From assembly GCA_964393865.1 (NCBI GenBank), contig CAYMUW010000012.1:1392-65391 (forward strand): a stretch of 64,000 nucleotides of DNA, in the 5' to 3' direction. This DNA comes from an uncultured Lachnospiraceae bacterium. GTDB taxonomy: Bacteria; Bacillota; Clostridia; Lachnospirales; Lachnospiraceae. The notes beneath the pieces were generated by a model. That model was given only the letters and a program-made list of their open reading frames with translations, was not told the DNA's origin and searched no databases. Shown here piece by piece: positions 1 to 18,050 of this stretch (within the stretch, counting starts at the first letter, position 1; each line of letters starts with the position of its first letter). The translations under genes and the position numbers were made by a program.

Positions 1-665
1 TGGCAAAATCCCATATGGATAAAAGCCTGAAAAGTGAATGTGGGATGCCTGCATGGATAGTTCCTGTTCAAGCCGGCAGGAGCTGTACTGACATAAAAAT
101 TGCCGAACTTTCGGATGACACCGGGGATAATATATCAGAAAAGAATCCTGACTTTTGCGAGCTTACAGTGACTTACTGGGTATGGAAAAATGTAGTGTGC
201 AGATATAAAGGAGTCTGCCATTACAGGAGAAGAATGCTCCTGAAAGATGAAGACATAACTAATATTTTTCAAGGCAATGTAGACATGATACTTCCTTTAC
301 CTTATATATGCTATCCCAATGCAACAGGCCAATATATGAGATACATATCAAAAGAAGACAGAAAACATCTGGAAACGGCTTTAGCTTATGTGTCACCTGA
401 GAGTGTTGATGTTCTCCATGAGATAGACGGTCAACAGATTTATTATGATTTTAATATGGTTATAGCAAAGAATGATGTTTTTGATGATTATGCAGACTGG
501 ATGTTTAGCATCCTCTTTGAAGCAGAAAAATCATGTGTGCCTGACGGAAAAATACGAGGGGACAGATATGCGGGATATTTGGGAGAGCTTCTGACCACCA
601 TATATATTTTCAAAAACAGGGATAGATTAAAAATTGTTCATGGAGAAAGGGATTGGTTAGTATGA
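1..665 (+). CDS. DUF4422-family glycosyltransferase-like protein (5' end lies outside the window)
   Basis: The frame is open from the window edge, upstream of the first ATG at 15. Motifs [22 protein letters not shown] and HYRRR are typical of DUF4422 proteins from capsule/EPS loci. Confidence 0.75.
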
Positions 666-1564
666 ATGAACAGACTCATTTGGATGCTTTAGAAGCAGAA
701 GCAGTTTACATTATGCGTGAAGTGGCGGCGGAATGCGAAAAACCAGTCATGCTGTATTCCATCGGCAAGGATAGCTCAGTAATGCTGCACCTTGCCATGA
801 AGGCATTTTATCCGGAAAAACCGCCCTTTCCATTCTTACATATTGATACGACGTGGAAATTCCATGAGATGATAGAATTCCGTGACTATACAGCAAAAAA
901 ATATGGGATTGAAATGCTGGTTTATACGAATGAAGAAGGAATCGCCAAGGGAATCAATCCGTTTGACCATGGTGCTGCCTATACGGATATCATGAAAACA
1001 CAGGCTTTGAAACAGGCACTTGCCAAGTATGGGTTTACGGCTGCTTTTGGCGGAGGCAGACGTGATGAGGAAAAATCACGTGCCAAAGAGCGTATTTTTT
1101 CTTTTAGGAATAAGGAGCAGGCATGGGATCCAAAGAATCAGCGCCCGGAGATGTGGAACGAATATAATACGTGTATCCATTTGGGAGAAAGCATTCGAGT
1201 ATTCCCAATCTCAAACTGGACAGAAAAAGATATTTGGCAGTACATAGAGCGCGAAAATATAGAGATTGTTTCTTTGTATTATGCCAGGAAACGCCCGGTG
1301 GTATACCGTGATGGAAATATCATTATGCCAGATGATGACCGCATGCCAATCCGTGAGGGTGAAGAAATAGTCATGAAGAAAGTCCGCTTCAGAACCTTAG
1401 GTTGTTATCCTCTGACGGGCGCTATTGAGTCGGAAGCTGATACCTTACCGAAAATCATTGCGGAAACGTTGGGAGCCGTATCCTCGGAAAGAAGCAGCCG
1501 GGTAATTGACAGTGATGGAGGCGCCGCAAGCATGGAAAAACGAAAGAGGGAGGGGTATTTTTAA
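662..1564 (+). CDS. cysD: sulfate adenylyltransferase subunit 2 (CysD)
   Basis: Full-length CysD-like sequence with the PP-loop-type motif [13 protein letters not shown]. The ATG at 662 overlaps the upstream stop (ATGA) and follows the RBS GGAGAAAGGGA. The ORF track starts at a TTG at 653. Confidence 0.95.
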
Positions 1565-3396
1565 TGGATGGGCTGTTGAAATTCATTACCTGCGGAAGTG
1601 TTGATGACGGAAAATCAACGCTGATTGGACATATGCTTTACGATGCTAAGCTTTTGTATGCGGATCAGGAAAAGACTTTGGAATTGGACAGCAGGGTAGG
1701 GAGCAGGGGCGGTGCGATTGATTATTCCCTTTTGTTGGATGGGTTGATGGCGGAAAGGGAACAGGGCATTACAATTGATGTCGCATACAGATATTTTACG
1801 ACTAGAAACAGGAGCTTTATTGTAGCAGACACGCCGGGACATGAGCAATATACTAGAAATATGGCCGTTGGCGCTTCTTTTGCCGATTTGGCAGTTATTC
1901 TCGTGGATGCCCTTCATGGCATACTGACACAAACGAGACGGCACTGCAGGATTTGTGCGATGATGGGGATAAAGTATTTTGTCTTTGCCGTGAATAAGAT
2001 GGATTTGGCAGATTATGAGAAGAATGTTTTTGCAAAGATAGAGAAGGATATTGAAAAGCTGTCAACTGAACTGAAACTGCATTCTGTTACCTGTATCCCG
2101 GTTTCTGCAGTCATGGGAGACAACGTTACGAACCGCTCGCAAAATATGGACTGGTATCATGGAAAGTCATTATTGGATTATCTGGAAACAATAAATGTCA
2201 GGGAGGAAACTGCAGAGGAAGGCTTTGTCATGCCAGTACAGAGGGTTTGCAGACCGGATCGTACATTTAGAGGTTTTCAGGGTCAAGTCGCATGCGGTGT
2301 GCTTGCAGCAGGAGAAACAGTTACTGTGCTGCCGAGCGGGGAGAAAGCTAAAGTTAAGTCTGTCTATAACACAGATAAACAGGTGGGGCAGATTTGCGCG
2401 GGACAGGCTGTGACGATTGCGCTTGACAGGGAGATTGATGTTTCAAGAGGCTGCGTATTTGTCAAGGATACCTCTGTGAAAAATGCGGATCTGTTTCAAG
2501 CGGGAATCCTGTGGATGGACGATGAGGAGCTTATTGACGGTAAATCTTTTCTGCTAAAAATCGGAACCAAAATGGTACCGGCTGCCGTTATGCATATAAA
2601 ATACAGGTTGGCCATAGATACAGGAGAGCATCTGACAGCATCACATATCCATAAAAATGACATGGCGGTCTGCGATATCGTGACATCCGAAAAAATTCCT
2701 TTTGATGAGTTCGCTAAGCATAGGGAGATAGGGCATTTTATACTGATTGATCGTATAACCGACATGACATCGGCATGCGGAGTTGTCAGGCATGAACTTC
2801 GTCGTTCAGAAAATCTTTTTTATCAGCAGATGGATGTGACCGGGGAACGGCGTGCGGCGATGATGAATCAAAGACCGGTTACATTATGGTTTACGGGATT
2901 ATCCGGAGCCGGCAAATCCACATTGGCAAATGAAGTAGAGAAGGCGTTGTTTCTGCGGGGAAAGCATACGATGTCACTCGATGGAGATAATATCAGAATG
3001 GGTCTTAACAAGAATTTAGGATTTACGCAGGAGGACAGAATAGAAAATATCCGGCGTATTGCCGAAGTGGCGAAGCTGATGAATGATGCCGGACTGATTG
3101 TTATGACATCGTTTATTTCGCCGTATCTGAGCGACCGGGAAAATGCGAGAAAAATTATAGGAAGTGGGAACTTTGTTGAAATCTATGTGTCAACGCCTCT
3201 CGCAGAATGCGAGAGGCGCGATGTGAAAGGACTGTACAGAAAAGCAAGGAATGGCGCCATTCCTAATTTTACAGGAATTGGAAGCCGATATGAGGAGCCG
3301 GAGAATGCGGATATCGTGGTTGACACGAGCAACATAACAATAGAAGCTGCCACTGCTTATATTTTAGAGCAGCTTGACAGGATGGAACTGCTATAA
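1564..3396 (+). CDS. cysNC: bifunctional sulfate adenylyltransferase subunit 1 / adenylylsulfate kinase (CysN-CysC fusion)
   Basis: N-terminal GTPase motifs GSVDDGKST, DTPGHEQY and NKMD. C-terminal APS-kinase P-loop GLSGAGKST. The start overlaps the cysD stop (TAATG). Confidence 0.95.
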   Translation: MDGLLKFITCGSVDDGKSTLIGHMLYDAKLLYADQEKTLELDSRVGSRGGAIDYSLLLDGLMAEREQGITIDVAYRYFTTRNRSFIVADTPGHEQYTRNMAVGASFADLAVILVDALHGILTQTRRHCRICAMMGIKYFVFAVNKMDLADYEKNVFAKIEKDIEKLSTELKLHSVTCIPVSAVMGDNVTNRSQNMDWYHGKSLLDYLETINVREETAEEGFVMPVQRVCRPDRTFRGFQGQVACGVLAAGETVTVLPSGEKAKVKSVYNTDKQVGQICAGQAVTIALDREIDVSRGCVFVKDTSVKNADLFQAGILWMDDEELIDGKSFLLKIGTKMVPAAVMHIKYRLAIDTGEHLTASHIHKNDMAVCDIVTSEKIPFDEFAKHREIGHFILIDRITDMTSACGVVRHELRRSENLFYQQMDVTGERRAAMMNQRPVTLWFTGLSGAGKSTLANEVEKALFLRGKHTMSLDGDNIRMGLNKNLGFTQEDRIENIRRIAEVAKLMNDAGLIVMTSFISPYLSDRENARKIIGSGNFVEIYVSTPLAECERRDVKGLYRKARNGAIPNFTGIGSRYEEPENADIVVDTSNITIEAATAYILEQLDRMELL

Positions 3397-4718
3397 TGGG
3401 GAAAAAGGCAAGATTTCTGATATCCATGTTTAAAATAGGAATGATAGGATTCGGCGGCGGCAATGCATTGATTCCGATAATTGAAAAAACGGTTGTAGAG
3501 GAGCAGAACCTTGTATCCAAAACAGAGTATGATGCGGATGTAATGATTGCAAGTATTACTCCTGGGGCACTTCCGGTTGAGATTGCGGGCGGAACTGGAC
3601 GGCGGTTGTTTGGGAGAGGTTATCTTATTGGCGGGGCTGTCGCAATGGCACTGCCGGGTGTCATATTGATGGTGGCGCTTGACGCTGCTATGACTTCGGT
3701 AAATGGGAATGTGTTGAAGCAGATCAATTTCCTGACAATCGGAATCTATGCATTTATCTGCTGTCTGCTGTCGGATTACATCGTGGGAACGGCGCATGAG
3801 AAACGGCAGGAATCTGCACTGCCGGCATGCATGACAGTAATAGGGCTTGTCATAGCTGCCACATGTGGGAAAAATATATATAGGCTGTTAGGGCGTGATA
3901 TACAGCATATCATAACGCTGAATACGATACAGGTATTTGCCGTGGCTTTTGCTGTGACGGCAGCAGTGGAAGGGGTGCGGTATCTTTTAGGATTTGGAAA
4001 GCAGCAGACATATACTATGGAAACCGGTTCCCTAAATTGGCAGACAGCGAAGAAAACAGTGGGGGAATTGCTGTCATGCCTTGCTTTTATGGTACTGCTT
4101 TCCATCCCTGCCCTGATTGTTTCAGAAGAAACGGTTTCGTTTATGGGGCGCGCATTCTTTTCTTCCCTGATTTCTTTCGGCGGAGGTGATGCATATCTTA
4201 CTGTTGCGGATGGGATGTTCGTGCACAAGGGCATGATATCGGAAGATGAATTCTACAGTGTGATTGTACCGCTGGTCAATACTCTGCCAGGTTCTATCTT
4301 GTGTAAGACGTTAAGCGGAATTGGATATTATATAGGATACGGCAGCGGCGGCTCGGTCATAAACGGAACTGCAGTAGCGTTATCCGGTTTTGCAGTCAGT
4401 ATATCGGCATCATGCAGCGTGTTTGCCGTGGCAGCAGGATTATACGAGGGATTGCAGAAAAGCAGGATATTCCGGGTTTTTCATAAGTGGATTAAACCGA
4501 TTGTATCGGGACTTTTGGTTAACGTGATGCTTTCTTTGTTGGTGCAGGTTCGCAGGATTGGCAGTTCCTGTGGAAATTCATTTGGTATATTCATATGTTT
4601 TGTGTTTATCCTGACGGCAAATATGATTCTGTATTACATAGTAAAGTTAAAGAATGAATGGATTATTTTATTTTCTGTTATGACTGCATTTGTTCTATGC
4701 AATGCGGTAGGGGTGTAA
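3396..4718 (+). CDS. chromate-transporter (CHR/ChrA) family membrane protein, two-domain form
   Basis: The CHR signature is duplicated: GFGGGNALIPIIEK in the N half and FGGGDAYLTVADG in the C half. There are many hydrophobic segments. The start overlaps the cysNC stop (TAATG). Confidence 0.8.
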   Translation: MGKKARFLISMFKIGMIGFGGGNALIPIIEKTVVEEQNLVSKTEYDADVMIASITPGALPVEIAGGTGRRLFGRGYLIGGAVAMALPGVILMVALDAAMTSVNGNVLKQINFLTIGIYAFICCLLSDYIVGTAHEKRQESALPACMTVIGLVIAATCGKNIYRLLGRDIQHIITLNTIQVFAVAFAVTAAVEGVRYLLGFGKQQTYTMETGSLNWQTAKKTVGELLSCLAFMVLLSIPALIVSEETVSFMGRAFFSSLISFGGGDAYLTVADGMFVHKGMISEDEFYSVIVPLVNTLPGSILCKTLSGIGYYIGYGSGGSVINGTAVALSGFAVSISASCSVFAVAAGLYEGLQKSRIFRVFHKWIKPIVSGLLVNVMLSLLVQVRRIGSSCGNSFGIFICFVFILTANMILYYIVKLKNEWIILFSVMTAFVLCNAVGV

Positions 4719-4720
4719 GT

Positions 4721-5500
4721 ATGTGGGAAAAAGAATTGGAAACTGCAAAGGAATGTGCCGTCCGTGCCGGCATAGCGGTAATGGACATCTATATCGGACA
4801 GGATGGTTTGGATGTTCAGTATAAAGATGATGACTCCCCACTGACTGCAGCAGATAGGGCATCTAATCAAATTATTGTGGAAACCCTGAAAAAGATGTTC
4901 CCCCTGTATGCTGTTTTATCGGAGGAAGAGAAGGATTCAAGGGAGCGTCTCAGTAATGATTTCTGCTTTGTTGTTGATCCGTTAGACGGTACAAAGGAAT
5001 TTATCAAAAGGAACGGACAGTTTACGGTCAATATTGCGTTAAGTTACCGGCATAAGTCGGTGATGGGTGTAATCTATGTCCCGGCAAGGGGAGAGTTATT
5101 TTATGCTGCACAGGGCAGAGGGGCATTCTTAAAGACACAGGGAAGCGCTGCTCCTGTCAGACTGAAAGTATCTGACAGATTTGGGGATTTACGCTGTGTC
5201 ATGAGCAGCTCTCATAACTGCCAGGAGATGGAAAATCTGATAAAAAAGCATCATTTAAAGAATTTCATCAAAATGGGAAGCTCACTCAAAGGCTGTATCA
5301 TTGCGAAAGGAGAAGCTGAAATCTATTACCGATACAACCCAACAATGGAGTGGGACACGGCGGCAATGCAGTGTATTGTGGAAGAGGCAGGGGGCATTTT
5401 ACGGCAGATGGATGATAGTGAGATGACGTATAATAGGGAAAATCCGTTGAATGATAAAGGATTCTATGTGATTAACAGGAAAGAGAACAGGATTAGATAA
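4721..5500 (+). CDS. cysQ: 3'(2'),5'-bisphosphate nucleotidase (CysQ, inositol monophosphatase fold)
   Basis: Motifs LSEEE, VVDPLDGTKEFI and EWDTAAMQCIVEEAGG. The ATG at 4721 (MWEKELE) lies 2 nt after the upstream stop. The longer track ORF from 4658 overlaps the transporter. Confidence 0.85.
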   Translation: MWEKELETAKECAVRAGIAVMDIYIGQDGLDVQYKDDDSPLTAADRASNQIIVETLKKMFPLYAVLSEEEKDSRERLSNDFCFVVDPLDGTKEFIKRNGQFTVNIALSYRHKSVMGVIYVPARGELFYAAQGRGAFLKTQGSAAPVRLKVSDRFGDLRCVMSSSHNCQEMENLIKKHHLKNFIKMGSSLKGCIIAKGEAEIYYRYNPTMEWDTAAMQCIVEEAGGILRQMDDSEMTYNRENPLNDKGFYVINRKENRIR

Positions 5501-5516
5501 CAAGGGAGGGAAACAG

Positions 5517-8500
5517 ATGAATTTTAAGCTGGTATCAGTTATTATACCTGTTTATAATGTAGAGGCTTATATTGAAAAATGTATAATGAGTATTGTAAGC
5601 CAGACATACAAGAATCTTGAAATAATTTTTGTTAATGACGGTTCTGAGCAAGAGGAGGAATCCATTATCAAGCAATATATGGAAAGAGATTCCAGGATTC
5701 ATTATATCAAGAAAAATGCAAACGAAGGCTTGTTTCGCGCAAGAGTAACGGGGGTGAAGGCCTCACATGGAGATTATATTCAATTTGTAGACAGCGATGA
5801 CTATATTAATGAGGATTTTATACGTCTTTTGGTGAGAAAAGCAGAAGAAGAGGACAGTGATATCACATTTGCACGAACTGTCACATGCACTCCGCGTGGA
5901 AGTGAAAGTATCTATGTGTTCCAAAATATGGAATTATATCAATTGCCTCTTGAAGGATTGGAACTGAAAAAGGCATATTATGGTCAGCATGGTTTTGCAT
6001 ATATTTTTCATACAATCTGGAATAAGCTTTATAAGAGGGAACTATGGATGCAGGCATTGCCGTATTTTGAAAAATTGGGAACGCCGATTGTTATGACGGA
6101 AGATATAGCATTTTCATCAATACTTTTTTATTTCGCTCATAAAGCTTCATGTACAGAAAACGCCGTGTATTTTTATTGTAAGCATACGGATGCCTCAACG
6201 GATTCTAAAGTCATTACTTTAAACCAGTATAAAAAAAGGATTGGAAATGTATGCACTGTTTTTGATTTCCTGCAGGATTTTTTTTCGGACAAAGAAAAGT
6301 GGATCCAAGATTGTATGGCGGATTTTAGGAGATATTATGGGCGTATGTGGCACCGGATTGCCGAGGAGATGGATGAGGCGGAACGGAGTCAGGCATTAGT
6401 GTTATGTAAACGATTAGCGGATGTTGAGTTGGACGATAAGAGTTCTGCCATGGATGATAATTATTTTTGTTATATGGAGATTCCTTACAGTAAATGCCTG
6501 GATGAGATTAAAAAACGTATTTACGAGGGAAGCGAGAGCGTAATCAGCTTTGATGTCTTTGACACGGTGGTTGCTCGTCCCTTTTTCCATCCGACAGACT
6601 TATTTGCTTTTTTGGATAAAAAGTTTGAAGAAATCTATTCTTCAAATATCTCGTTTCAGACAATCAGAACGGAAGGAGAAGAGGGATGCAGAAAGCAGTT
6701 GTGTGACGAGAAGCGCGAGGATGTCACACTGGAAGAAATCTATCAGTATATCAGTGAAATGTATGATATTCCATGGGAAAAAGCCCATAAACTTATGGAA
6801 TATGAAGAAGCATTAGAAATTGAGTTTAATTTCAGGAGAAACACGGGGTATGAATTATATTCACTTGCTTTAGACGCAGGGAAAAAAGTTATTTTCACAT
6901 CGGATATGTATCTTCCTAAGTCCTGCATTGCCAAAATATTGCATAAAAACGGATATACACGGTATGAAGCCGTCTATGTATCCTCTGAATATAAAAAATT
7001 GAAATATACCTCAAGCTTATATAGAGCAGTGCTTTCGGAAATGCACGTAAAACCGGAGGATATCCTTCATATTGGAGATAATCAGGATGCGGATGTAAAT
7101 GGCGCTGAAAAAATAGGAATATCGACAGTTTATATTCCAAAGTCTATGGATGCGTTTTGTGGTAATACGAAAAAGATTACAAATCATCATCGCTTTACGA
7201 TGGGAAAGGACATCGGAGGCAGCTATAGAGGAATGAAGAGCTTTGAAAAAAATATTGCTTATGGAGCAACCATTGCTCTTGCGTCAATAAAATATTTTGA
7301 TAACTCCTATTGTGGTTTCAATGACTTTACTGATTTTAACGTGGATGGTTATTTTGCAGGTTATTACCTGCTGGGAACAAGCCTGCTCGGACAGATTGCA
7401 TGGTTGGAAAATATTGTAAATGAAAAAGGGATTAAAAGGATTATATTTACATCTAGAGACGGCTATCTGCTTATGGAAGCATATAGGCGTTATTTAAAGA
7501 TATGTAAGAAAGAGAAAGAAGTTCTATATTTTTATGTATCTAGAAGGAGCATGATGCCTTGGATTTTGAAAGATAAATTAGATTTTATGTCACTGCCCAT
7601 TGTTTATCAAAAGTATTCACCTGACAGTGTTGAGGAGCTGCTGAGCTTCTGTATATCACACGAAAGTGATGAGGAATGGGAAGATGTTCTTAACACGAAT
7701 GATATCATACGTACTCGTGAATTTGCCTCCATTGTGGAATATCACAAGTTTATGAATTTATTTTTGGCATATAGATATAGCAGTTCAGAGCATATGAAAG
7801 CAAAAAAAACAGTATCACAATATTGCAGTGTGATACATAACGATGACGGCATCTATGACTTGGGTTATAGTGCCTCCATACATAAAGCAATCTGCGATGC
7901 GAGTGGTCGGAAACCTACAGCGCTTTTCATGCATTCGGATGCCGAGAAACATCTGAAAAATGAGCGCATTGGTGGATTTGAGATTGTAAGTATGATGGAT
8001 ACGATTCCTAATGCTAACGGACTTTTGAGAGAATTTTTCTTTTCGGATACGGGAGGAAGTTGTATCGGCTATGAACAAAATGGACAGACAACCCCAATCA
8101 TAGAAAACGAAGATAAAAATTATTCGGATCTGTTTCCAATCCGAATGATGCAGATGGGAGCCTTAAAAATGGTTGATGATTTTTATCATATTTTTAAGGA
8201 TTATCTTCCGTATATGGAAATCAGGACGGAAGAAATGCTGCTGCCTTTTGAAAGTTTTCTGGCATTTCCTGCGGTCATTGATACGAAGATGTTTGCAGCA
8301 TCTTATTTTGAGGACAAGGTATATGGAAAAATCAGTCAGATAAACGTTAGGGATTTTTGGATGCAGCTATTGATTAACCAGCCGGGATATCAGAAAAATG
8401 ACATTATCCATTATTTTGATGAACTGTTAAAAAAATACCATAAGAAAAAACTGGCTTTTTTTGGAACCGGTAAAATGTGCGAAGCAATGTTTGAAACAAA

Positions 8501-8717
8501 TCCTGATATACCTGTGGAGATTTATTTGGATAACGATATAAGAAAAACAGGACAGAAATATAGAGGCAGGAAGATTTATTTACCCAAAGATTATCCGAAT
8601 TTGAAAGAATTATATATTGTTGTTGTCATTGCTTTTTACAAAGAAGTAGAAGAACAGTTAAGGGATATGGGATTGGTGAAATACGAAGATTATCTCAATT
8701 ATTTGGAATTGTTTTAA
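5517..8717 (+). CDS. 1066-aa multidomain protein: GT2 glycosyltransferase + HAD-like hydrolase + unassigned region + C-terminal Rossmann-like module
   Basis: N-terminal GT2 motifs VSVIIPVYNVEAYIEKC..FVNDGS and DSDD. HAD-type DxDxT motif (FDVFDTVV) and HIGDNQDAD. C-terminal FFGTG..LDNDIRKTGQKYRG. RBS GGGAGGGAAACAG precedes the ATG. Confidence 0.8.
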   Translation: MNFKLVSVIIPVYNVEAYIEKCIMSIVSQTYKNLEIIFVNDGSEQEEESIIKQYMERDSRIHYIKKNANEGLFRARVTGVKASHGDYIQFVDSDDYINEDFIRLLVRKAEEEDSDITFARTVTCTPRGSESIYVFQNMELYQLPLEGLELKKAYYGQHGFAYIFHTIWNKLYKRELWMQALPYFEKLGTPIVMTEDIAFSSILFYFAHKASCTENAVYFYCKHTDASTDSKVITLNQYKKRIGNVCTVFDFLQDFFSDKEKWIQDCMADFRRYYGRMWHRIAEEMDEAERSQALVLCKRLADVELDDKSSAMDDNYFCYMEIPYSKCLDEIKKRIYEGSESVISFDVFDTVVARPFFHPTDLFAFLDKKFEEIYSSNISFQTIRTEGEEGCRKQLCDEKREDVTLEEIYQYISEMYDIPWEKAHKLMEYEEALEIEFNFRRNTGYELYSLALDAGKKVIFTSDMYLPKSCIAKILHKNGYTRYEAVYVSSEYKKLKYTSSLYRAVLSEMHVKPEDILHIGDNQDADVNGAEKIGISTVYIPKSMDAFCGNTKKITNHHRFTMGKDIGGSYRGMKSFEKNIAYGATIALASIKYFDNSYCGFNDFTDFNVDGYFAGYYLLGTSLLGQIAWLENIVNEKGIKRIIFTSRDGYLLMEAYRRYLKICKKEKEVLYFYVSRRSMMPWILKDKLDFMSLPIVYQKYSPDSVEELLSFCISHESDEEWEDVLNTNDIIRTREFASIVEYHKFMNLFLAYRYSSSEHMKAKKTVSQYCSVIHNDDGIYDLGYSASIHKAICDASGRKPTALFMHSDAEKHLKNERIGGFEIVSMMDTIPNANGLLREFFFSDTGGSCIGYEQNGQTTPIIENEDKNYSDLFPIRMMQMGALKMVDDFYHIFKDYLPYMEIRTEEMLLPFESFLAFPAVIDTKMFAASYFEDKVYGKISQINVRDFWMQLLINQPGYQKNDIIHYFDELLKKYHKKKLAFFGTGKMCEAMFETNPDIPVEIYLDNDIRKTGQKYRGRKIYLPKDYPNLKELYIVVVIAFYKEVEEQLRDMGLVKYEDYLNYLELF

Positions 8718-8732
8718 ATGCGGAGGAAGTTT

Positions 8733-10092
8733 ATGAGCCATAAGTTGATTGTACATATTGGAATGCCCAAAACGGGAACCACTGCTATTCAGGATTTTTT
8801 GTTTGATAATTCGGAAAAGCTGAAAAAGTACGGATATTGTTATCCGGATCTGATTAGTGAACTGAGAGATAGGGAATATGACATAAAGTGCAGACAGGAA
8901 GGGTTGACTAAAAATGGCGTTGTTCTTTCTTTATTCAGAAGCTGGGAAGACCATTCTGACATTAATAAAGTCAATGAAAAAGCATGGTATTTATTTAAGG
9001 AATTATTGGAAAAGCATCTTGCTGTATGTAATGTGATTATTTCGGATGAAGATTTATGGTGTCAAGGGAATAATTATGCGATATTAAGGCGCTTAAAAGA
9101 GATATGTAATGATATGAAAATCATATGCTACATAAGACGGCAGGATTTGGAAGCAGAAGCTTTGTGGAATCAGGTGGTCAAAAGATACGGATATTGTAAT
9201 ACACCGTTTCCTGAAAGTAAAAGCAGATGGCTGGACGGCAGAGCCATGAAATATCAGGAATTGCTGGAAAATTTTGAAAAAATCGCTGGCTTTGAAAAAT
9301 TGCATGTCCGTGTGTATGAAAAACAACAGTTGTATGGCATCAACGGAGATATTGTAGAGGATTTTTTACATATTCTTGGTATTGAAAAAGGCTGTGAAGA
9401 ATGGATAGAGCGAAAAAAATCAAATGAGCGGTTGAACGGCAGTATGCTAAATATAAAAATGAACATGAACAAGAGTTTATCAAAAGAGAATTGGTTTTCA
9501 GCAATTGTGGAAGAACAGTTTATGAACGTGATTGCCAAGCATTGCAGCTTTGGAGAGGAGCTTATGGAGGGTTATTTTACCTTGGAAGAAAGGCAGCAAG
9601 TGATAGAACGATTTCAAGACGAAAACAGGATAATCGCTAAAAGGTTTTTGGGAAGATTGGATGGAAGACTGTTTTATGATGAAGTGAAGGATATGCCGCT
9701 GCATTCTGATGAGATTTCAAGTGCAGACATGGTGGAAGTATTTACCGCAATGATTCTGGAGTTGAATGAAAAGATATGGAAGCTGTACTCAAAAGGGTAT
9801 GCTGGTATGATAGGTTCCAGGAAATGCACTTTATTTGGAGCGGGGGGGGCAATGCAGAAAGTTTTGCTCTATATATAGTGAGTTACCGATTGACTTGGTT
9901 GTTGACAATGACAGGAGTAAAACAGGGACAAAAATATACGGTCACAGTGTAAAACACTTTGATGAAATAGCAGATTGGAACGAGCGTTTTATTATTATTA
10001 CATGTTACGCGTATAAAGATATTTCAGAGCAACTGCAGGGTGTTGGAATGCGGGAGAACACGGATTTTATTGTTTTTTTCGATGCTGAATAA
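8733..10092 (+). pseudogene. sulfotransferase-like protein interrupted by a frameshift in a G8 tract (frames 8733-9878 and 9835-10092)
   Basis: PAPS-binding-like motifs IVHIGMPKTGTT and IRRQDLEAEALWNQ. The protein is collinear with the intact paralogue at 10104-11468. The reading frame is restored by deleting one G at 9842-9849. Confidence 0.75.
9842..9849 (+). repeat. G8 homopolymer at the frameshift point
   Basis: Read directly: gga gcGGGGGGGGc aat. The stop follows 8 codons later in the current frame. Confidence 0.95.
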
Positions 10093-10103
10093 GGAGGCAA
10101 TCT

Positions 10104-11468
10104 ATGCAAAACAGAATAATAGTACATATTGGAATGCCGAAGACAGGTACTAGTTCCATTCAGAATTTTTTATTTGATAATGCCGAGAAATTAAGACAAT
10201 ATGGGTATTGTTATCCTGATTTTTTGAAAGAGATGAATGAGGCGGGATATGTTATGGCGGCAAGACCAGTGGAACGGAGCAAAAATGGGCTTGCTGCGAT
10301 TATATTGAGAGAATGGGAAGTTCAGACTGATTGTAAAAATAAATTCGCAGAAGCATGGAATTCCCTTGAAACAAAAATAGTTTCATATCTGAAACGGTAT
10401 CATGTAATTATTTCATGTGAAGAAATTTGGATTAGGAAAAATTGTTTTGAATTACTTAGCTGGTTAAAACATATAACCCCTAATATCTGCGTGGTTGTGT
10501 ATTTGAGAAGACAGGATCTGGCAATGGAAGCTATGTGGAATCAAGACATAAAAAGATATAGATATTTGGGGAAAACGCTAGCGCAATGTCTGGAAGGTCC
10601 GGAAAAGGAGTGGATGGAGGAAAGAGTATTAGGATATCTCGAAAAACTAACAAAAGTACAGGATATTGTTTCGATGGATAACATGATTGTACGTATATAT
10701 GAATCACAGCAGATGTATCAAATGTCTGGCGATGTGATTGATGATTTTTTATATACATTGGGAATCCCGATAAGTGACGGTGAATGGATTAAACGCAATC
10801 CATCCAATGAAAGATTGAATGGCAGTTTGCTGAATATCAAGAAGACAATGAATGAATGTTTAGCAGGAAGAGAATGGTTCTCGGGAATCATAGAAGAATA
10901 TGTATTAAAAGCTGCTTCTGAACTAAACTTTCCCAATGAAAAAGAAGCATATTTTTCATTGGAAGAAAGAAAAAGATTTATTGAAAGTTATGCGGAAGAA
11001 AACAGTGAGATTGCGAAAAAATTTTTGAAACGTTCTGACGGAAGACTGTTTTATGATGAAGTAAAAGATCTTTCGTTACATACGGATACAATCTTATTGG
11101 AAGATATCATTAAGTTGTTTACTTACATCGCATTGGAACAGGAAAAAAAAATTTATGAAAAAACCAAATTTTGTATTCCTGATTTTTTGCTGAAAGGCAG
11201 AAAACTGACATTGTTCGGGGCAGGGTATCAATGTAAAAAATTTCTCGCTCAGAATAACTTATCGGTAGACCTGATTGTAGATAACAATCGAAGTAAATCA
11301 GGAACAGAGATATATGGCTGTAAAGTCAAGCATTTTGATGAAGTAACAGATTGGAGTCAAAGATTTGTGGTAATTACATGTGTTGCATGTTTGGAAATGA
11401 TAGAACAATTAAGAGCATTGGGTATGCAGTACAATCTGGATTTTGTTGTATTTGAAGATAATGTATAA
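10104..11468 (+). CDS. sulfotransferase-like protein with C-terminal Rossmann-like module (intact paralogue)
   Basis: Motifs IVHIGMPKTGTS (5'-PSB-like) and YLRRQDLAMEAMWNQ (3'-PB-like). C-terminal LFGAGYQC..VDNNRSKSGTEIYG. RBS AAGGAGG. The gene sits next to the PAPS synthesis genes. Confidence 0.75.
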   Translation: MQNRIIVHIGMPKTGTSSIQNFLFDNAEKLRQYGYCYPDFLKEMNEAGYVMAARPVERSKNGLAAIILREWEVQTDCKNKFAEAWNSLETKIVSYLKRYHVIISCEEIWIRKNCFELLSWLKHITPNICVVVYLRRQDLAMEAMWNQDIKRYRYLGKTLAQCLEGPEKEWMEERVLGYLEKLTKVQDIVSMDNMIVRIYESQQMYQMSGDVIDDFLYTLGIPISDGEWIKRNPSNERLNGSLLNIKKTMNECLAGREWFSGIIEEYVLKAASELNFPNEKEAYFSLEERKRFIESYAEENSEIAKKFLKRSDGRLFYDEVKDLSLHTDTILLEDIIKLFTYIALEQEKKIYEKTKFCIPDFLLKGRKLTLFGAGYQCKKFLAQNNLSVDLIVDNNRSKSGTEIYGCKVKHFDEVTDWSQRFVVITCVACLEMIEQLRALGMQYNLDFVVFEDNV

Positions 11469-11482
11469 GAAATAAAACATAT

Positions 11483-12535
11483 ATGCTATGGGGAAAGATT
11501 ATGCAGATCAATAGTTATGAGTTAAAGCCTATACTGGCAACAATTATAAAGGCTGATGAAAGGATGTTTTACGCAGCTTCAAAGGGAGTCCGTATCGTTG
11601 AATGGAATTCTATTGGAATCAACATACTTTATGCCGAGGAAACTGATAATCTGTGGGGAGCGTTCCATTTTTCGGCTGTATTTCATGAGAGTATTTTTTT
11701 CTTTCCACGTAATTATGATTATGTTATAAAATATGACATTATCCAAAAACAAACAGAAAAAATTGCTGTTCCAGGGAAACAAAACGAAGAATTTATGCTT
11801 CCGTATATCAATAATGATGCTTTTATGATGATAGGACTGAGCAGCGGCAATGTGTACAAATGGGTTGATGAATGTGCATTTGAAAAGGTATCGCAGCTGG
11901 ATTGGGGATGTGAACAGTGGAAACTTAATAAACAAGGCGCACGAATTGAAAATATACTCTTTTGGAACACAGATAAAGAAATTGCAATTTTAGACAAAGA
12001 GAATCTGATGATTAAGAGGATAGTCATTTCAACTGATGAAATTTTGTATGCGGCTGGAGATGAGAGGCATTTATTTTGGGTATCGGAGTCGGGAGATGTA
12101 TATTCCCAGTATGATAAGTTCGGAGATTTTAACTACTTGTTTCATTTGGAATTTCCTGTTTCTGATTTAGCGCGTTTTATATATCGTGAGCATAGCCTAT
12201 ATCTTTTGCCCCACACCGGTAATCAGATTTATGTGATAAAGGAAAATTCGGAAGCATCGGTTGTAAACCTAGAGTTGGATTTAAAGGATAAAAATGTGAA
12301 TTGGGCAGTTTGTGAAGACGGTTTCATCGGAGTGGCAGAGAATATTGATAAACCATGGAATGGGGAGTTGACCTTTTTTACTTATAATCCGTCCGGTCAT
12401 ATAGTATTGAAACTTCCTTTTGAAGAGGCTGCAATGAAATACTTGTTCCATAAGAATATAAAAAACGGGATTTTGATTCGAGAAGGAGAAAATAACGATT
12501 TAAAGACATATTTAAAACTTGTAAAAGGGAGCTGA
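11483..12535 (+). CDS. hypothetical soluble protein (no motif recognised)
   Basis: Long ORF in the operon orientation with low-GC codon usage like its neighbours. An alternative start is the ATG at 11501 after GGGGAAAG. No TM segment or signal peptide is seen. Confidence 0.6.
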   Translation: MLWGKIMQINSYELKPILATIIKADERMFYAASKGVRIVEWNSIGINILYAEETDNLWGAFHFSAVFHESIFFFPRNYDYVIKYDIIQKQTEKIAVPGKQNEEFMLPYINNDAFMMIGLSSGNVYKWVDECAFEKVSQLDWGCEQWKLNKQGARIENILFWNTDKEIAILDKENLMIKRIVISTDEILYAAGDERHLFWVSESGDVYSQYDKFGDFNYLFHLEFPVSDLARFIYREHSLYLLPHTGNQIYVIKENSEASVVNLELDLKDKNVNWAVCEDGFIGVAENIDKPWNGELTFFTYNPSGHIVLKLPFEEAAMKYLFHKNIKNGILIREGENNDLKTYLKLVKGS

Positions 12536-12630
12536 CATTATGATGCGAGATTCATGTTTATCACATGTTGAATGGTTTGGCAATGAAAAAGAAACAGTTT
12601 TATGTGCAGTGATTGTATTAAGGGAGAAAA

Positions 12631-13827
12631 ATGATTAGTATTATTGTTCCAATCTATAATGTGGAATCTTATCTGTATCAGTGTATGGACAGTATTATCA
12701 AACAGACTTATCAGGATATTGAAATTATTTTGGTGGATGACGGTTCCCTTGACGGTGGAGGAAAGATCTGCGATGCCTATGCCGGGCGCGATTGCAGAAT
12801 CAAAGTGATCCATAAAGAAAACGGGGGTCTTGTCAGTGCGCGAAAGGCCGGATTATCTGTGGCGGAAGGAGAATGGATCGGCTATGTGGACGGCGATGAC
12901 TGGATTGAGCCGGATATGTATGAGAAATTGATGATTAAGGCTTTGGAATATGATGCTGATATTGCTATGTGCGGCAGATATGAAGATACAGGGGATATAT
13001 CAAAACCTGTATATCATGGCTTCCCCGAAGGATATTATGACAGGAATAAGCTGCTGACAGAGATTTATCCCAAAATGATGGTGGGAAGGGATTTTTTTGA
13101 ATGGGGGATTTTCCCCGGTGTATGGGATAAGCTTTTCAAGAGGGAAATAATAGAGGATTTCCAGATGCAGGTAGATGAGAGGATTATGATGGGTGAGGAT
13201 GCAGCCTGCGTGTATCCGTGTATGCTGTCGGCCAAAAGAGTGTATATATTGCACGAATGCCTCTACCATTACAGGCAGTCAACGGATTCTATGATAAAAA
13301 GGAAGGAGGATACCGCAGTTGAAAGAGAACGCTTTGAAATACTGTATACCTCTGTATTGCAGCAGTTGGATAGGCTGAAGGGCGTATACAGTCTAACAAA
13401 CCAGTGGAAAAAATATATGCTTTTTCTTATGCTTCCAAGGGCTGACAGTTTATATGACGGGGTTGAAAACCTGGATTATCTCTTTCCGTTTCCCGGCGTA
13501 TCAAAGGGCGAAAAAATCTTGTTGTACGGAGCCGGAACATATGGGCAAAGATTGTACCAATGGTTAAAGGAGTCTTCGTTTTGCAGCGTAATCATGTGGG
13601 CTGACAGGAATTATAAGGAAATCCAAAAGCATGGATTGGACGTGCGCAGTCCGGAGGAAATCAGGAATGCGGATTTTGACCATATCGTAATTGCTATCAT
13701 CAATGCAGGAGTGAGGAAAGCAGTCAAAAGAGAGCTTGCGGAAATCTATGGGGAGAACAAAGTGGAGGGCATTGATGAGAAACTGATCATGAGTGAGGAT
13801 ACAGAAAGGAAATTCCGCATGAGATAG
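12631..13827 (+). CDS. GT2 glycosyltransferase with C-terminal Rossmann-like module
   Basis: Motifs ISIIVPIYNVESYLYQC..LVDDGS and DGDD. C-terminal LLYGAGTYGQ..WADRNYKEIQKHGLDV. RBS GGGAG. Confidence 0.85.
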   Translation: MISIIVPIYNVESYLYQCMDSIIKQTYQDIEIILVDDGSLDGGGKICDAYAGRDCRIKVIHKENGGLVSARKAGLSVAEGEWIGYVDGDDWIEPDMYEKLMIKALEYDADIAMCGRYEDTGDISKPVYHGFPEGYYDRNKLLTEIYPKMMVGRDFFEWGIFPGVWDKLFKREIIEDFQMQVDERIMMGEDAACVYPCMLSAKRVYILHECLYHYRQSTDSMIKRKEDTAVERERFEILYTSVLQQLDRLKGVYSLTNQWKKYMLFLMLPRADSLYDGVENLDYLFPFPGVSKGEKILLYGAGTYGQRLYQWLKESSFCSVIMWADRNYKEIQKHGLDVRSPEEIRNADFDHIVIAIINAGVRKAVKRELAEIYGENKVEGIDEKLIMSEDTERKFRMR

Positions 13828-13973
13828 ATGGAAAATCAAATGAAAGAAATAGAAAAAATGCTGATTATGGACGAGTCTGGCTAATTGGGAAAAAGTATTT
13901 TATTTAAGCGGTGTTAATTCCGATGTTGGAAAACCTGAAAATAAAAGGCTGCCAGACAGGAGGCAGGAAGAAA

Positions 13974-14960
13974 ATGGAAAAAATACTGATCACGGGCGCG
14001 TCCGGCTACATCGGCTCCATGCTCGTAAAGCATATCCTGAGTGAGGACAGCGGCGCAGAGATTACAGCGCCGCTGAGGAGGACTGCCGGGACAAGGCTTC
14101 CGGCATCGGACAGGCTTCGCATTATAAAGATGGACCTATCGGAAAAATCCGCATTGGACAGTCTCGCGCCGGACTGTTCCTATATCATTCACTGCGCATG
14201 TGCCACGAAATCGTCAGAGATGGCTGCGCATCCCGTGGAAACGGCGGCGGGCATTTTAAGCATCACGGAGAATGTCCTGTATTATGCCAAAAGGTGTCGG
14301 GAATCCGGAGCTTTAAAATCTATGGTCTACCTTTCGTCGATGGAGGTTTATGGAAACATCGATTGTTCTGACGGACACCGGGCAGCGGAGGACGAGATGG
14401 GCTATATAAACCCGCTTGCCGCCCGGAGCTGCTACCCACTGGGAAAACGCATGGCGGAGAACCTGTGCTATTCCTATTTTAAGGAGTATGGCGTCCCGGT
14501 GAAGATAGCCCGTCTTGCGCAGACCTTCGGGCACGGCGTCCTGCTGGATGACAGCCGCGTGTTCGCGCAGTTTGCAAGGGCGGCGGCGGAAGGGCGGGAT
14601 ATCGTCCTGCACACGGAAGGAAAGTCCATGGGGAACTACTGCGGCATAGATGACGCCGTAAAAGGCATCCTGACGATCCTGCGGCGCGGAGCTGACGGCG
14701 AGGCCTACAACGTGGTGAACGAGACGAACACCATGAGCATCCGTGAGATGGCGGAGCTTGTGGCGGAAAAGCTTGCGAAAGGTCAGATCAAAGTGGTCTG
14801 TGACATCCCCAAGGATAACGTGTATGGCTATGCGCCCGACACGGGGCTGCGGCTTTCGGGCAGGAAGCTGATGGGGCTTGGATGGATGCCGGCGCAGGAT
14901 CTTGCGGAGATGTACCGGGATGCGGCGGAGGATATGGCAGCTCAAGGAGCAGCGCCTTGA
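13974..14960 (+). CDS. NAD-dependent epimerase/dehydratase (SDR family)
   Basis: Motifs ILITGASGYIGS (GxxGxxG) and YPLGK (YxxxK). RBS AGGAGG. GC is visibly about 60% against about 30-38% in the upstream locus. Confidence 0.85.
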   Translation: MEKILITGASGYIGSMLVKHILSEDSGAEITAPLRRTAGTRLPASDRLRIIKMDLSEKSALDSLAPDCSYIIHCACATKSSEMAAHPVETAAGILSITENVLYYAKRCRESGALKSMVYLSSMEVYGNIDCSDGHRAAEDEMGYINPLAARSCYPLGKRMAENLCYSYFKEYGVPVKIARLAQTFGHGVLLDDSRVFAQFARAAAEGRDIVLHTEGKSMGNYCGIDDAVKGILTILRRGADGEAYNVVNETNTMSIREMAELVAEKLAKGQIKVVCDIPKDNVYGYAPDTGLRLSGRKLMGLGWMPAQDLAEMYRDAAEDMAAQGAAP

Positions 14961-14980: not shown

Positions 14981-16429
14981 TTATGAGCGGTAAGTTTCCA
15001 TGCCTGGTTTAAGAGCCGCGTCCTGTCCTTTTGCGGCAGGATGTCCGAGATACTGTTCCATATTAGCCATTTTCTGTTTAAGAGATCTGGCTTCCTGCTC
15101 GGCTGATCTGCATGTTTTCTCAAGAGCGGTCTTACGGGTCAGCATCGCTTCATAGTCAGCACGGATCTCATCCGAATCGACAGATTTCGGGTCAAGCCCT
15201 ATCTTTTGGAGCATACGCTCAGCGCCGTCATACAGGATCAGCTGGGTTTCGTGCATCCGAAGGTATCTGTCCGGATCTTTTGATCTATTATATTTCTCCT
15301 GATACGGTTTATTGTCCCTGTACTGCTCTGCATAGAGGAGCAGTTCTGAGATTTTTTTCATTTCATGCTCCAGTTCCACAAGCCCGGTGCGGGCAGATCT
15401 TGCCCCTGCGGTCTTTTCATCTATCTGCTCATGGAGCTCAGCCAGGCTATCTGCGGCGGCGTAACTGGAAGCGGCAGTTTTGAGGTTCTTAATAGCTGCC
15501 CAGTGCTGCAGTCCGGGGCTGCTTTTGAATTTCTCGCTGGTGGTGTCGATAAGCGTTCTGCTCGCACTGGTGCGGGTGATGATGTCCTTCTTTGGAACCT
15601 TGATCCGTGATTTCTGTTTAGGAGCCTCTGTAGTAACAGGCTCCTGACAGTCCTGTTTTACATTCTGCCATTTCTCCGGATTCTCAATCCTGTCTTTGAT
15701 ATCCTCTTTGGTATATCCTAATCCAAAATTGCGTAAGCTGCCGCGCACCGAACGCTCCTGTCCTGGGGCAAGGAACTTTATATATTTCGCATGAGGATCA
15801 CCGATTTTTTCTCCGGTGATTTTGTAGCCTTTTTCTCTGATCAGGCGCAGGAACTCTTCATAGGATTCAGAGAGTTTGATGCATTCATCAATATCTGCCT
15901 GCAGCCGCTTTTTCCATGAGATGCCTTCCTGTTCGGCTTTCCACTCCACATATTTTTTGCCTTTTCTGCCGCTCGGCTCAATGATGGAAAGGTTGTGTTC
16001 CTTGCATAATTCATCACTGAGCTGCCGGATGTGGTAATAGCTTTTCTTGCAGGCGTTATATTTTTTGTGGTCGATATTATCGGCGGCGCAGAAAATGATG
16101 TGGTTATGAGGGTGGCCTTTATCCACGTGGGTTGCTACAACATAGGAGTATTTTCCTTCCAGCAATCTGTCGGCAAGCTCAATTCCGATTCTGTGTGCTT
16201 CTTCGTAAGAAACCTCACCTTTTGCAAAAGACTGGATCAGGTGATATGCCAGATTTTTATCGGAGGACTTCGTTCTGCAAAGAGCGTAATCAAAGTCATG
16301 CCTGGCAGTATCGGGATGACAGCCAAAAGAATCAACAAGCAGTTGCTGCTCGGTTTTATCAGGGTTACAAATATAATTTACAGCTTTTGTAACGGTACTT
16401 TTGATAGCATGGATTCGTGTGTATGCCAT
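14981..16429 (-). CDS. relaxase/mobilisation nuclease (MobA/VirD2 family)
   Basis: N-terminus MAYTRIHAIKS..YICNPDKT, HLIQSF, and the histidine triad HVDKGHPHNHIIF. Confidence 0.9.
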   Translation of the reverse strand: MAYTRIHAIKSTVTKAVNYICNPDKTEQQLLVDSFGCHPDTARHDFDYALCRTKSSDKNLAYHLIQSFAKGEVSYEEAHRIGIELADRLLEGKYSYVVATHVDKGHPHNHIIFCAADNIDHKKYNACKKSYYHIRQLSDELCKEHNLSIIEPSGRKGKKYVEWKAEQEGISWKKRLQADIDECIKLSESYEEFLRLIREKGYKITGEKIGDPHAKYIKFLAPGQERSVRGSLRNFGLGYTKEDIKDRIENPEKWQNVKQDCQEPVTTEAPKQKSRIKVPKKDIITRTSASRTLIDTTSEKFKSSPGLQHWAAIKNLKTAASSYAAADSLAELHEQIDEKTAGARSARTGLVELEHEMKKISELLLYAEQYRDNKPYQEKYNRSKDPDRYLRMHETQLILYDGAERMLQKIGLDPKSVDSDEIRADYEAMLTRKTALEKTCRSAEQEARSLKQKMANMEQYLGHPAAKGQDAALKPGMETYRS

Positions 16430-16722
16430 ATCTTATCCATCAGCTCCTTTATCTCATTTAGGTCTTCTTCGTAAATATTCCCGGTTTTCATAATCCGCGT
16501 TCTTATCATGTTTATGTTTCTTCCGAGTGCGGCGATCTGATAGTTGTATTCTTTCAGACCGCTATAGTCGATGTCGTAGGTATAACCGTACAGGATCAGG
16601 TGACGGATATACTCGGATATATTTCGCATTTTGGATGCCTTGAACTTTTCATCCAGGACATATTTTTCATCTTCACTGAGATATACCTGTATGGGGATTT
16701 TGCGTTCCCGCTCTTTACTCAT
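16378..16722 (-). CDS. mobC: relaxosome accessory protein MobC
   Basis: RHH-like N-terminus (IQVYLSEDEKYVLDEK) and GRNINMIRTRI typical of the MobC family. It lies immediately upstream of, and overlaps, the relaxase. Confidence 0.85.
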   Translation of the reverse strand: MSKERERKIPIQVYLSEDEKYVLDEKFKASKMRNISEYIRHLILYGYTYDIDYSGLKEYNYQIAALGRNINMIRTRIMKTGNIYEEDLNEIKELMDKIWHTHESMLSKVPLQKL

Positions 16723-16829
16723 GATGAGACACTTCCTTTCAATATTGCCGTTTCCGGCGAATTATCTTTTTGGCAGAAATGCTTCGGTTTCCGTAGAGGT
16801 AAAAAGATGTAGTTCTGCATTAACGGGGG

Positions 16830-17160
16830 TCAGGGGGGAGTATCCCCTTGCAAGCTCATTTGCGCGTAACTTCGAGGCAGGCGGACATGCTCGCATGGAC
16901 ATCTGCCGAGAAGCGCGGCATCGGGCAGTTTATTGCCCGATGCGCCATTTTTCCGGCAGGAGAAATGGTCAGCAAATGTGGATGTGTCATGACACATCCA
17001 ATGCTTGGTATTCTTCTTGCAAATCCGTCAGGATTTGCGGGTTCAGACTGCCATAGGGCAGGCGGCTTTGAACCCATAACGCCGTATCCGGCGATTGTTC
17101 TTATGCTTTTGTACTGTGGGGAAAATAACGGTAAAATAAAAAACTGCCACAGTACGGGCG
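16830..17160. other. candidate oriT / structured DNA region upstream of mobC
   Basis: Noncoding stretch with clustered inverted repeats at 16918-16943, 16979-17000 (perfect 22-nt palindrome), 17019-17038 and 17111-17119/17147-17155. Confidence 0.4.
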
Positions 17161-17357
17161 CACGGGCAGCGCCGGTAATCGTAGCAGTTTTGGTGTTTTC
17201 TTGAAGTAACTCAAATTTTATCAGATGAACCGGTGATGGTCAATGTGTTTAATAGAAAATCGTCCACAAGTTGGGGGCGATTTTCGGTCGAAAAAATTCA
17301 ACTCAATCTGGGGTAAAATTGACGAGCGCTGCATAGAATATAGGAAACAGATTTTTC

Positions 17358-17387
17358 TTGACTAGGGTCTATATCACGGTATATACT
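17358..17387 (+). promoter_or_regulatory. putative sigma-A promoter of vapBC
   Basis: TTGACT (17358-17363), 18-nt spacer, TATACT (17382-17387), about 25 nt upstream of the vapB ATG. Confidence 0.45.
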
Positions 17388-17411
17388 ATAAATGAAAGGA
17401 AGGTGATCATT

Positions 17412-17642
17412 ATGATGACTGCAAAGGTTTTTGAAAATGGAAGAAGTCAGGCAATCAGACTTCCTAAGGAATGTCGTTTCACATCAGATGAGGTGATGGT
17501 GAATAAGATTGGTGATATTGTGATCCTGCTTCCCAAGCAGAATAAATGGGATTCTTTTATGAGAGCGATAGATATGTTCTCTGATGATTTTATGGCTGAT
17601 GGAAGATCAACAGATATTTGTCAGGAGCGTGAAGCACTATGA
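17412..17642 (+). CDS. vapB: VapB-type antitoxin (AbrB/MazE/SpoVT fold)
   Basis: FENGRSQAIRLPKECRF motif. RBS GAAAGGAAGGTGA precedes the ATG at 17412. The stop overlaps the vapC start. Confidence 0.8.
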   Translation: MMTAKVFENGRSQAIRLPKECRFTSDEVMVNKIGDIVILLPKQNKWDSFMRAIDMFSDDFMADGRSTDICQEREAL

Positions 17643-18040
17643 GATATATGCTTGATACAAACATCTGCATCTATGCGATCAAGCATAAGCCGGAGAAGGT
17701 GTTTCAGAAATTACAGGAAGTTGATCCTGAAGACGTATGTGTATCTTCGGTCACATATGCAGAACTTGTGCATGGTGTAGAAAAAAGTGCCGCCGTAGAA
17801 AAAAACAGGCTGGCACTTTCCATGCTTCTCGCAAATATAGAGATTTTGAATTTCGATGTAGATGCGGCGGACTGTTACGGAAAGATCCGGGCAGGTCTTG
17901 AAAAGAAAGGTATGCCGATTGGCCCCCTTGATATGATGATCGCAGGTCATGCGATGTCAATGGGGTACACTGTGGTAACGAACAATGTAAAAGAGTTCTC
18001 CAGAATCCCGGATCTGAAAATAGAGAACTGGACTGAGTGA
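17639..18040 (+). CDS. vapC: VapC-type PIN-domain toxin
   Basis: MLDTNICIY (first acidic PIN residue), typical length of 133 aa, 4-nt overlap with vapB. Confidence 0.9.
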   Translation: MRYMLDTNICIYAIKHKPEKVFQKLQEVDPEDVCVSSVTYAELVHGVEKSAAVEKNRLALSMLLANIEILNFDVDAADCYGKIRAGLEKKGMPIGPLDMMIAGHAMSMGYTVVTNNVKEFSRIPDLKIENWTE

Positions 18041-18050
18041 TTATAATTTA

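Follow-up and report, generated by a model that had tools for sequence, protein, structure and literature searches.

The window analysed here is a 64-kb stretch of DNA, positions 1,392 to 65,391 of contig CAYMUW010000012.1 (assembly GCA_964393865.1) from an uncultured Lachnospiraceae bacterium, and all coordinates below count from its first nucleotide. It carries a glycan locus with two sulfotransferase-like genes in tandem. In the first of them, called here the G8 gene, the reading frame is broken at a run of eight guanines, and the second is intact. The features concerned are the following.

9842..9849, plus strand: G8 homopolymer, the site of the frame break
8733..9878, plus strand: upstream frame of 381 amino acids (aa), from ATG 8733 to the stop TAG 9876-9878
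9850..10092, plus strand: +1-frame continuation (open from 9835; stop 10090-10092), the rest of a C-terminal mini-Rossmann module
10104..11468, plus strand: intact tandem paralogue of 454 aa, 45% identical, with an in-frame A9 (11143-11151) in its linker helix

The G8 run, GGGGGGGG, is the only G run of at least 7 in the window, whose guanine-plus-cytosine (GC) content is 43%, and the C7 at 22314-22320 is the sole C run of at least 7. The ATG is preceded, at a distance of 5 nucleotides (nt), by a strong Shine-Dalgarno sequence (GGAGGAA, 8722-8728). The upstream frame encodes a sulfotransferase-like domain (with a PKTGTT P-loop and a YxRRQD motif), a long linker helix and strand beta1 of the C-terminal module. 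Before the TAG it reads ...LFGAGGAMQKVLLYI, where RKCTLFGAGG is followed by a 10-residue out-of-frame tail (AMQKVLLYI). The +1 frame, from 9835 to the stop at 10090-10092, encodes ...QCRKFCSIYSELPIDLVVDNDRSKTGTKIYGHSVKHFDE... An initial annotation of this DNA had described the halt just past the run and the +1 frame continuing to 10092, and had stated that deletion of one G restores a full protein collinear with the paralogue; all of this was reproduced in our analysis. The product has 452 or 453 aa with G7 or G10, 381 aa with G8, and 405 or 406 aa with G6 or G9, and the alignment of the protein rebuilt with G7 with the paralogue runs from end to end (residues 1-450 against 1-452, 45% identity, E 1e-144).

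In the G7 reading the tract consists of the last base of Ala370 (GCG), Gly371 (GGG) and Gly372 (GGG), that is, codons 370-372 of 452, or 82% into the gene. The longest G run of the window coincides exactly with its sole frame break, which is a non-random feature. In phasome prediction, G/C tracts of about 7-8 or more are usually taken as slippable in silico. The G8 run is an intragenic repeat of sufficient length, and a change by one unit toggles the gene between an intact and a truncated frame, as in contingency genes. Two other slip-prone runs pointed out at first, the A9 of the paralogue and the C7, are both present and both in frame.

The sulfotransferase-like character of the gene had been proposed in the initial annotation. 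In Pfam, Sulfotransfer_3 gave a weak match at the N-terminal PKTGTT P-loop (E 0.01, below the cutoff), and NCBIfam assigns neither the two sulfotransferases nor the 85-aa fragment encoded downstream of the break to a family. The sequence HIGMPKTGTT is invariant across the family alignment and fits the P-loop-like 5'-phosphosulfate-binding motif PKxGT[ST]. An AlphaFold (AF2) model of the intact paralogue was built with 36 family sequences (predicted local distance difference test, pLDDT, 89.7; predicted template modelling score, pTM, 0.78), and its best Foldseek matches in the PDB are human TPST1/2, the bacterial structure 3rnl and the CurM sulfotransferase domain, at E ~3e-4 and modest template modelling (TM) scores. 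Genes for the synthesis of 3'-phosphoadenosine-5'-phosphosulfate (PAPS) and for the removal of 3'-phosphoadenosine-5'-phosphate (PAP) stand directly upstream on the same strand, so that genomic linkage is also observed. Because PAPS supply and PAP removal adjoin the gene, a putative glycan sulfotransferase is its best reading, and both the predicted fold and the PAPS-gene neighbourhood support the original assignment. A word-indexed protein search makes the family look small, with 35 matches, yet it is common in Lachnospiraceae genomes, with 429 confirmed stretches.

Where in the protein does the tract fall? In the paralogue model the sulfotransferase fold occupies about residues 1-330 and the linker helix residues 332-355; the C-terminal module then opens with strand beta1 (367-371), a G-A-G loop (372-374) and a helix (375-383). 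An alignment of 15 family sequences shows F-G-A-G as invariant or almost invariant, followed by a variable position (G372 in this gene; E, Y, H, R, C or Q elsewhere). The G8 run is thus the part of the gene that encodes the beta1-alphaA glycine loop (F-G-A-G-G) inside a C-terminal mini-Rossmann module of ~90 aa. Its earlier placement in a domain linker was wrong, as the alignment and the model both put it after strand beta1 of the module.

Modelled alone, the module has a mini-Rossmann fold (pLDDT 89.9), beta-alpha-beta with a GxG loop after strand 1. Foldseek matched it to the Rex NAD(H) domain (query-based TM score, TMq, 0.61-0.68), to the N-terminal domains of VioB and PglB, which are sugar N-acetyltransferases, and to 3nkl, also matched by profile at E 0.0024. 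Its Pfam equivalent is C2185-like_N / PglD_N. When the module of the G8 gene itself was scanned directly against Pfam, no match came up; PF22674 is precomputed on homologues, and PglD_N matches the related module of a GT2 glycosyltransferase encoded at 12631-13827 (E 1e-5). A hidden Markov model (HMM) built for the module has four matches in the window, at the C termini of four enzymes.

8433-8714, plus strand: module of a GT2/HAD protein
9814-10089, plus strand: module of the G8 gene
11187-11465, plus strand: module of the sulfotransferase paralogue
13498-13824, plus strand: module of the GT2 glycosyltransferase

A module shared by four enzymes of one locus suggests a common ligand or docking role. 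Its contribution could be binding of a nucleotide or a nucleoside diphosphate (NDP)-sugar, or assembly with the other module-bearing enzymes. The modules of the two sulfotransferase paralogues are 57% identical in aa sequence, against 44% for the catalytic N-terminal parts, and co-evolution or a shared partner is possible. Gene conversion between them (9810-10095 against 11187-11471) was considered and rejected, for the DNA is ~65% identical with no long identical stretch. In another Lachnospiraceae metagenome-assembled genome (MAG), the same module type opens a DUF1919 protein rather than ending an enzyme (locus L001).

The G8 product of 381 aa keeps the whole catalytic domain and the linker helix and loses the module. 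The view that the truncated product still holds the whole sulfotransferase-like domain was thereby borne out by the alignment and the paralogue model. The companion idea, that the frameshift detaches the C-terminal module, fared worse: the module is destroyed rather than detached, because the 85-aa open reading frame (ORF) that remains has no strand beta1. Within the family the module is dispensable. Among the 35 database homologues, 21 cover only 53-78% of the query and have no module, and a homologue of this kind is present in most of the 78 genomic loci; judged from sequence, the 381-aa product resembles such natural short forms. Since these end at about the same point, the designation of G8 as "OFF" is only an assumption, and the likelier effect of G8 is the loss of whatever the module contributes. 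With the tract late in the gene and the catalytic domain complete, G8 is not placed so as to give the null OFF state typical of a contingency gene. The tract state also changes the distance from the stop to the ATG of the paralogue, which is 11 nt with G7 (overlapping its ribosome-binding site) and 226 nt with G8. A polar or translational-coupling effect on the paralogue may be possible.

Neither the G7 allele nor a close relative (>55% identity) was found in the protein collection, the GTDB representatives or the JGI metagenomes. A search of ~15 billion proteins with the rebuilt G7 protein recovered the truncated 381-aa product alone, with the closest other relative at 55% identity, and exact-cluster look-up gave single-member clusters only. 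No entry came back when the contigs encoding the proteins of the window were looked up. The GTDB representative genomes, to which the source genome does not belong, contain 429 relatives, none above 54% identity. Scans of JGI metagenome DNA, both with exact flanks and with codon-degenerate flanks and a variable gap, gave 0 matches. None of the long-form homologues examined, among them the paralogue and the homologues with 55% and 47% identity, has a run at the FGAG site. The tract appears to be lineage-specific and not maintained in homologues, hence no tract conservation is seen. The A9 of the paralogue (11143-11151) encodes a conserved linker-helix peptide, E-K-K-I, in AT-rich codons, and the same in-frame A9 is present in a 55%-identical homologue from another sample (L079, P0002 residue 343). 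By this comparison, the A9 is inherited and tolerated, with no sign of switching.

How unusual is such a run? In dinucleotide-preserving shuffles, 2.1 G8/C8 runs are expected per 64 kb, and at least one occurred in 78 of 100 shuffles. The G8 run alone is not beyond chance and lies within the dinucleotide expectation. Against real sequence, runs of this kind are rare, with only 5 G/C runs of at least 7 in 871 kb of homologous loci. The Ala-Gly-Gly codons GCG-GGG-GGG are unusual too: of all Gly codons 16% are GGG, and one Gly-Gly pair in 89 is written GGGGGG.

Some G/C runs of the homologous loci deserve description. In L001, an in-frame G9 (9460-9468; ATG GGG GGG GGA, ...IIMGGGD...) lies where the C2185-like_N module meets DUF1919, in a gene ~2 kb downstream of the sulfotransferase homologue. 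In an Anaerolineaceae MAG (L074), an in-frame G8 (W-G-G) at 4458-4465 is near the N-terminus of a sulfotransferase-family homologue; a second homologue there (10493-11224) has only 243 aa, and a G7 follows 150 nt past its stop. In L007, a second, unrelated sulfotransferase-like gene (5318-5990; PGKVASSS, LVRDPVARQIS) is located directly upstream of the family homologue. Its stop comes 12 codons after a G7; G8 would extend the frame, yet an in-frame TAG comes next. By its sequence this gene is a pseudogene with two lesions. With its combination of a G7 frameshift and a nonsense codon, it is a case of G-tract lesions accumulating in these loci as ordinary pseudogenisation.

The next question is whether the frame break is a real mutation and, if so, how old it is. 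There are 121 homopolymers of at least 6 in the window, 90 of them inside intact long ORFs (including A9, three A8 and T8). No other homopolymer of the window breaks a recognisable gene, and no other split gene was found there. With 90 such runs intact, a real slip, recent or reversible, is likelier than an error-prone assembly. The frame downstream of the break keeps all the invariant and near-invariant residues of the family (DND, K, W, T, QL). The ratio of identity in the C-terminal module to identity in the N-terminal part, taken against other family members, is 0.99, compared with 0.97-1.03 in intact homologues, and the module HMM scores the downstream frame at 113 bits and the intact paralogue at 117. 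Because this frame has not decayed, we infer a recent or reversible event.

We tentatively favour, at a probability that falls a little short of even, a real and recent frameshift at a hot spot, which removed the accessory module from one redundant sulfotransferase paralogue. Slipped-strand mispairing at the mutational hot spot would have expanded G7 to G8 by one base, and the G8 allele would make a 381-aa protein with a PAPS-dependent catalytic domain and the linker helix, devoid of the module. Being intrinsically hypermutable, a G8 run is expected to revert to G7 at an elevated rate. The anatomy, the fold and the intact downstream frame are shown directly; that the change is a real and recent mutation, and how it affects function, we infer. 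The lesion would be incidental, in one of two redundant tandem paralogues, with no positive evidence found for an evolved contingency switch. The pseudogene of L007 is similar in that a frameshift at a G run affects a sulfotransferase-like gene in a homologous Lachnospiraceae glycan locus; it differs in having a second lesion, the in-frame stop, whereas in the G8 gene the break is the sole lesion and the downstream frame is undecayed.

Several observations weigh against an incidental lesion. The choice of GCG-GGG-GGG for Ala-Gly-Gly is unusual, and the few G/C runs of at least 7 in related loci are mostly in or beside sulfotransferase-like or glycan-modifying genes; the rarity, codon choice and gene class of these runs give hints of non-random placement. 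A maintained switch would account equally well for the lack of decay downstream. The gene comes from one assembled genome only, in which a sequencing or consensus error at the tract is conceivable.

Slipped-strand switching of glycan genes is textbook knowledge, and the tracts of the classical loci are conserved across strains and polymorphic in length. If the G8 run were an evolved phase-variable switch of this kind, as the initial annotation proposed, its length would reversibly toggle the long module-bearing sulfotransferase and diversify the sulfation of the surface glycan within the population. We regard this as on balance improbable, although it deserves serious weighing. As in Neisseria lgt/pgtA, Haemophilus lic/lgtC and Helicobacter futA/B, a one-unit change shifts the frame of a glycan-modifying enzyme. 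The G8 run lies inside a surface-glycan modification gene with its downstream frame undecayed, the unusual codon choice is what creates the tract, and long in-frame G tracts are found in glycan-modification genes of related loci (L001 G9, L074 G8).

Two published cases may serve as precedents for such a switch. In Campylobacter jejuni HS:19, the putative sulphotransferase CjjRM3420_1439 has a poly-G/C tract and belongs to a cysD-cysN-permease-cysC cluster (PMC8743553). The likeness to the present locus is close, for a G/C tract is inside a putative sulfotransferase gene beside PAPS-synthesis genes and glycosyltransferases, with on/off or truncated expression of a glycan-sulfating enzyme predicted. 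However, C. jejuni has an experimentally established genome-wide poly-G phasome with strain-variable lengths, against one genome and one tract here, and in our case the sulfotransferase family is unrelated, the host is a Gram-positive-type Lachnospiraceae, and the tract removes only a C-terminal accessory module. In Akkermansia muciniphila, the exopolysaccharide (EPS) gene Amuc_1413 has a G9 tract at codon 55 of 735, whose frameshift leaves a null product; the change from 9 to 10 G arose repeatedly and independently, the reads were a mixture (87-91%), and tracts of 8G or 10G occur in other genomes (PMC13055324). Here as well, a poly-G run in a surface-polysaccharide gene of a gut commensal truncates the product by frameshift. 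In contrast to the early tract, null product and observed length changes of Amuc_1413, the tract of the G8 gene is late and known from one assembly.

Position is one of the points which speak against a switch. Phase-variable tracts are biased towards the N-terminus, those of the classical slipped-strand loci lying mostly close to the 5' end, and a frameshift towards the C-terminus is simply tolerated better (PMC3315296); the G8 run, at 82% of the gene, departs from this bias of null-type switches. The gene occurs once in the searched collections, with no visible length polymorphism, and its homologues do not conserve the tract. The truncated product has the architecture of a natural short form, so the phenotype may be subtle, and the run stays within the dinucleotide expectation. 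Our literature search turned up no description of phase variation driven by repeats in Lachnospiraceae.

By its sequence-level features the G8 gene is a legitimate candidate of a familiar kind, though an unproven one. If it were a switch, a simple-repeat trick known from Campylobacter and Neisseria would also be at work in a common lineage of gut Firmicutes. A variable, negatively charged (sulfated) surface glycan would have consequences for phage adsorption, immune recognition and interaction with mucus. At present it is one frameshift in one genome, whose value is that of a precise target rather than of a finding.

An artefact of sequencing or assembly, with a real tract of G7 and an unbroken gene in the organism, seems unlikely. 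Miscounting a homopolymer by one base is the most frequent error in assemblies, the frame downstream is as perfectly conserved as expected of an intact gene, and no gene of the window apart from the G8 gene was seen to be broken. Against this, the 90 other runs of at least 6 (including A9, A8 and T8) are in frame, so the homopolymer errors typical of a platform are not apparent. Two sources, NCBI and Logan, record the 381-aa and 85-aa products, the truncated products being identical, though both may derive from the same reads.

A switch at the level of domains can also be envisaged. Slippage would alternate a long isoform, whose mini-Rossmann module serves nucleotide binding or assembly, with a short, still catalytic one, so that the population would vary the sulfation pattern of its surface polysaccharide, and coupling to the paralogue might be altered at the same time; we think this quite unlikely. 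If it were true, no earlier case of phase variation driven by repeats would be on record for Lachnospiraceae, nor one of switchable glycan sulfation for a gut Firmicute.

Very improbable is recoding, by which the G8 gene would be functional and the full-length protein made through +1 ribosomal frameshifting or through slippage of RNA polymerase on the G run. The sequence GGG GGG G permits +1 re-pairing of the tRNA, an SD-like (Shine-Dalgarno-like) GGAG is just upstream of the run, and homopolymers can cause transcriptional slippage. However, long-form homologues are all single ORFs, in which no frameshift is conserved. The A site holds no slow or stop codon, the next codon, GCA, being the commonest Ala codon, and there is no downstream RNA structure (z-score 0.13). 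A programmed frameshift was rejected on the missing RNA structure together with the lack of conservation.

It is hardly credible that the gene is functionally split, its catalytic part reassembling with the 85-aa C-terminal fragment: this ORF starts at TTG 9835 and is called as a gene in public annotation, but because the frameshift falls after strand 1 it has neither strand beta1 nor the GxG loop of the Rossmann-like fold and cannot fold as a complete module, no homologue is so organised, and its separate expression was rejected, there being no convincing ribosome-binding site (AGGA, 12 nt from the TTG) and no promoter signal above background.

The favoured reading, a recent incidental frameshift, can finally be set in the context of the whole locus, whose other genes are as follows.

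653-1564, plus strand: cysD-like gene
1564-3396, plus strand: cysN/cysC fusion
3396-4718, plus strand: ChrA-family transporter
4658-5500, plus strand: CysQ-like phosphatase of the inositol-monophosphatase family (PAP removal)
5517..8717, plus strand: 1066-aa GT2 + HAD-like protein, ending in the same module type (56 bits against the module HMM)
11483-12535: unassigned 350-aa ORF
12631..13827, plus strand: GT2 glycosyltransferase with a related C-terminal PglD_N-like module

The ChrA-family (chromate transporter) and CysQ-like genes overlap by 61 nt, and the ChrA-family protein may be the sulfate importer of the PAPS pathway. The stop of the 1066-aa GT2/HAD gene abuts the G8 gene. The ORF at 11483-12535 has no significant similarity to the ORF upstream of the L001 homologue. 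Over 653-14960 a complete PAPS pathway is joined to the glycan locus, which also includes a DUF4422 protein and an NAD-dependent epimerase, and this gene content implies a putative sulfated surface polysaccharide in Lachnospiraceae. In this family the locus thereby connects the making of PAPS with a pair of sulfotransferases and with several glycosyltransferases; a literature search for sulfated polysaccharides in Lachnospiraceae found no report.

The GC content is 37% over 5517-13827 and ~44% in the flanks, and the low-GC glycan locus was probably acquired horizontally. Downstream, at 14981-20230, there are genes for a relaxase, a NikA-like protein, a PIN toxin, a DUF6088 protein, a sigma-70 region-4 protein and a 246-aa tyrosine recombinase (integrase), so that the locus looks like the cargo of, or a neighbour to, the remnant of a mobilisable element. 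The methionyl-tRNA synthetase (MetRS) places the host within Lachnospiraceae near Suilimivivens, its closest relatives being 96% identical. Because such relatives exist, yet no close copy of the sulfotransferase does, the locus appears to be strain-specific.

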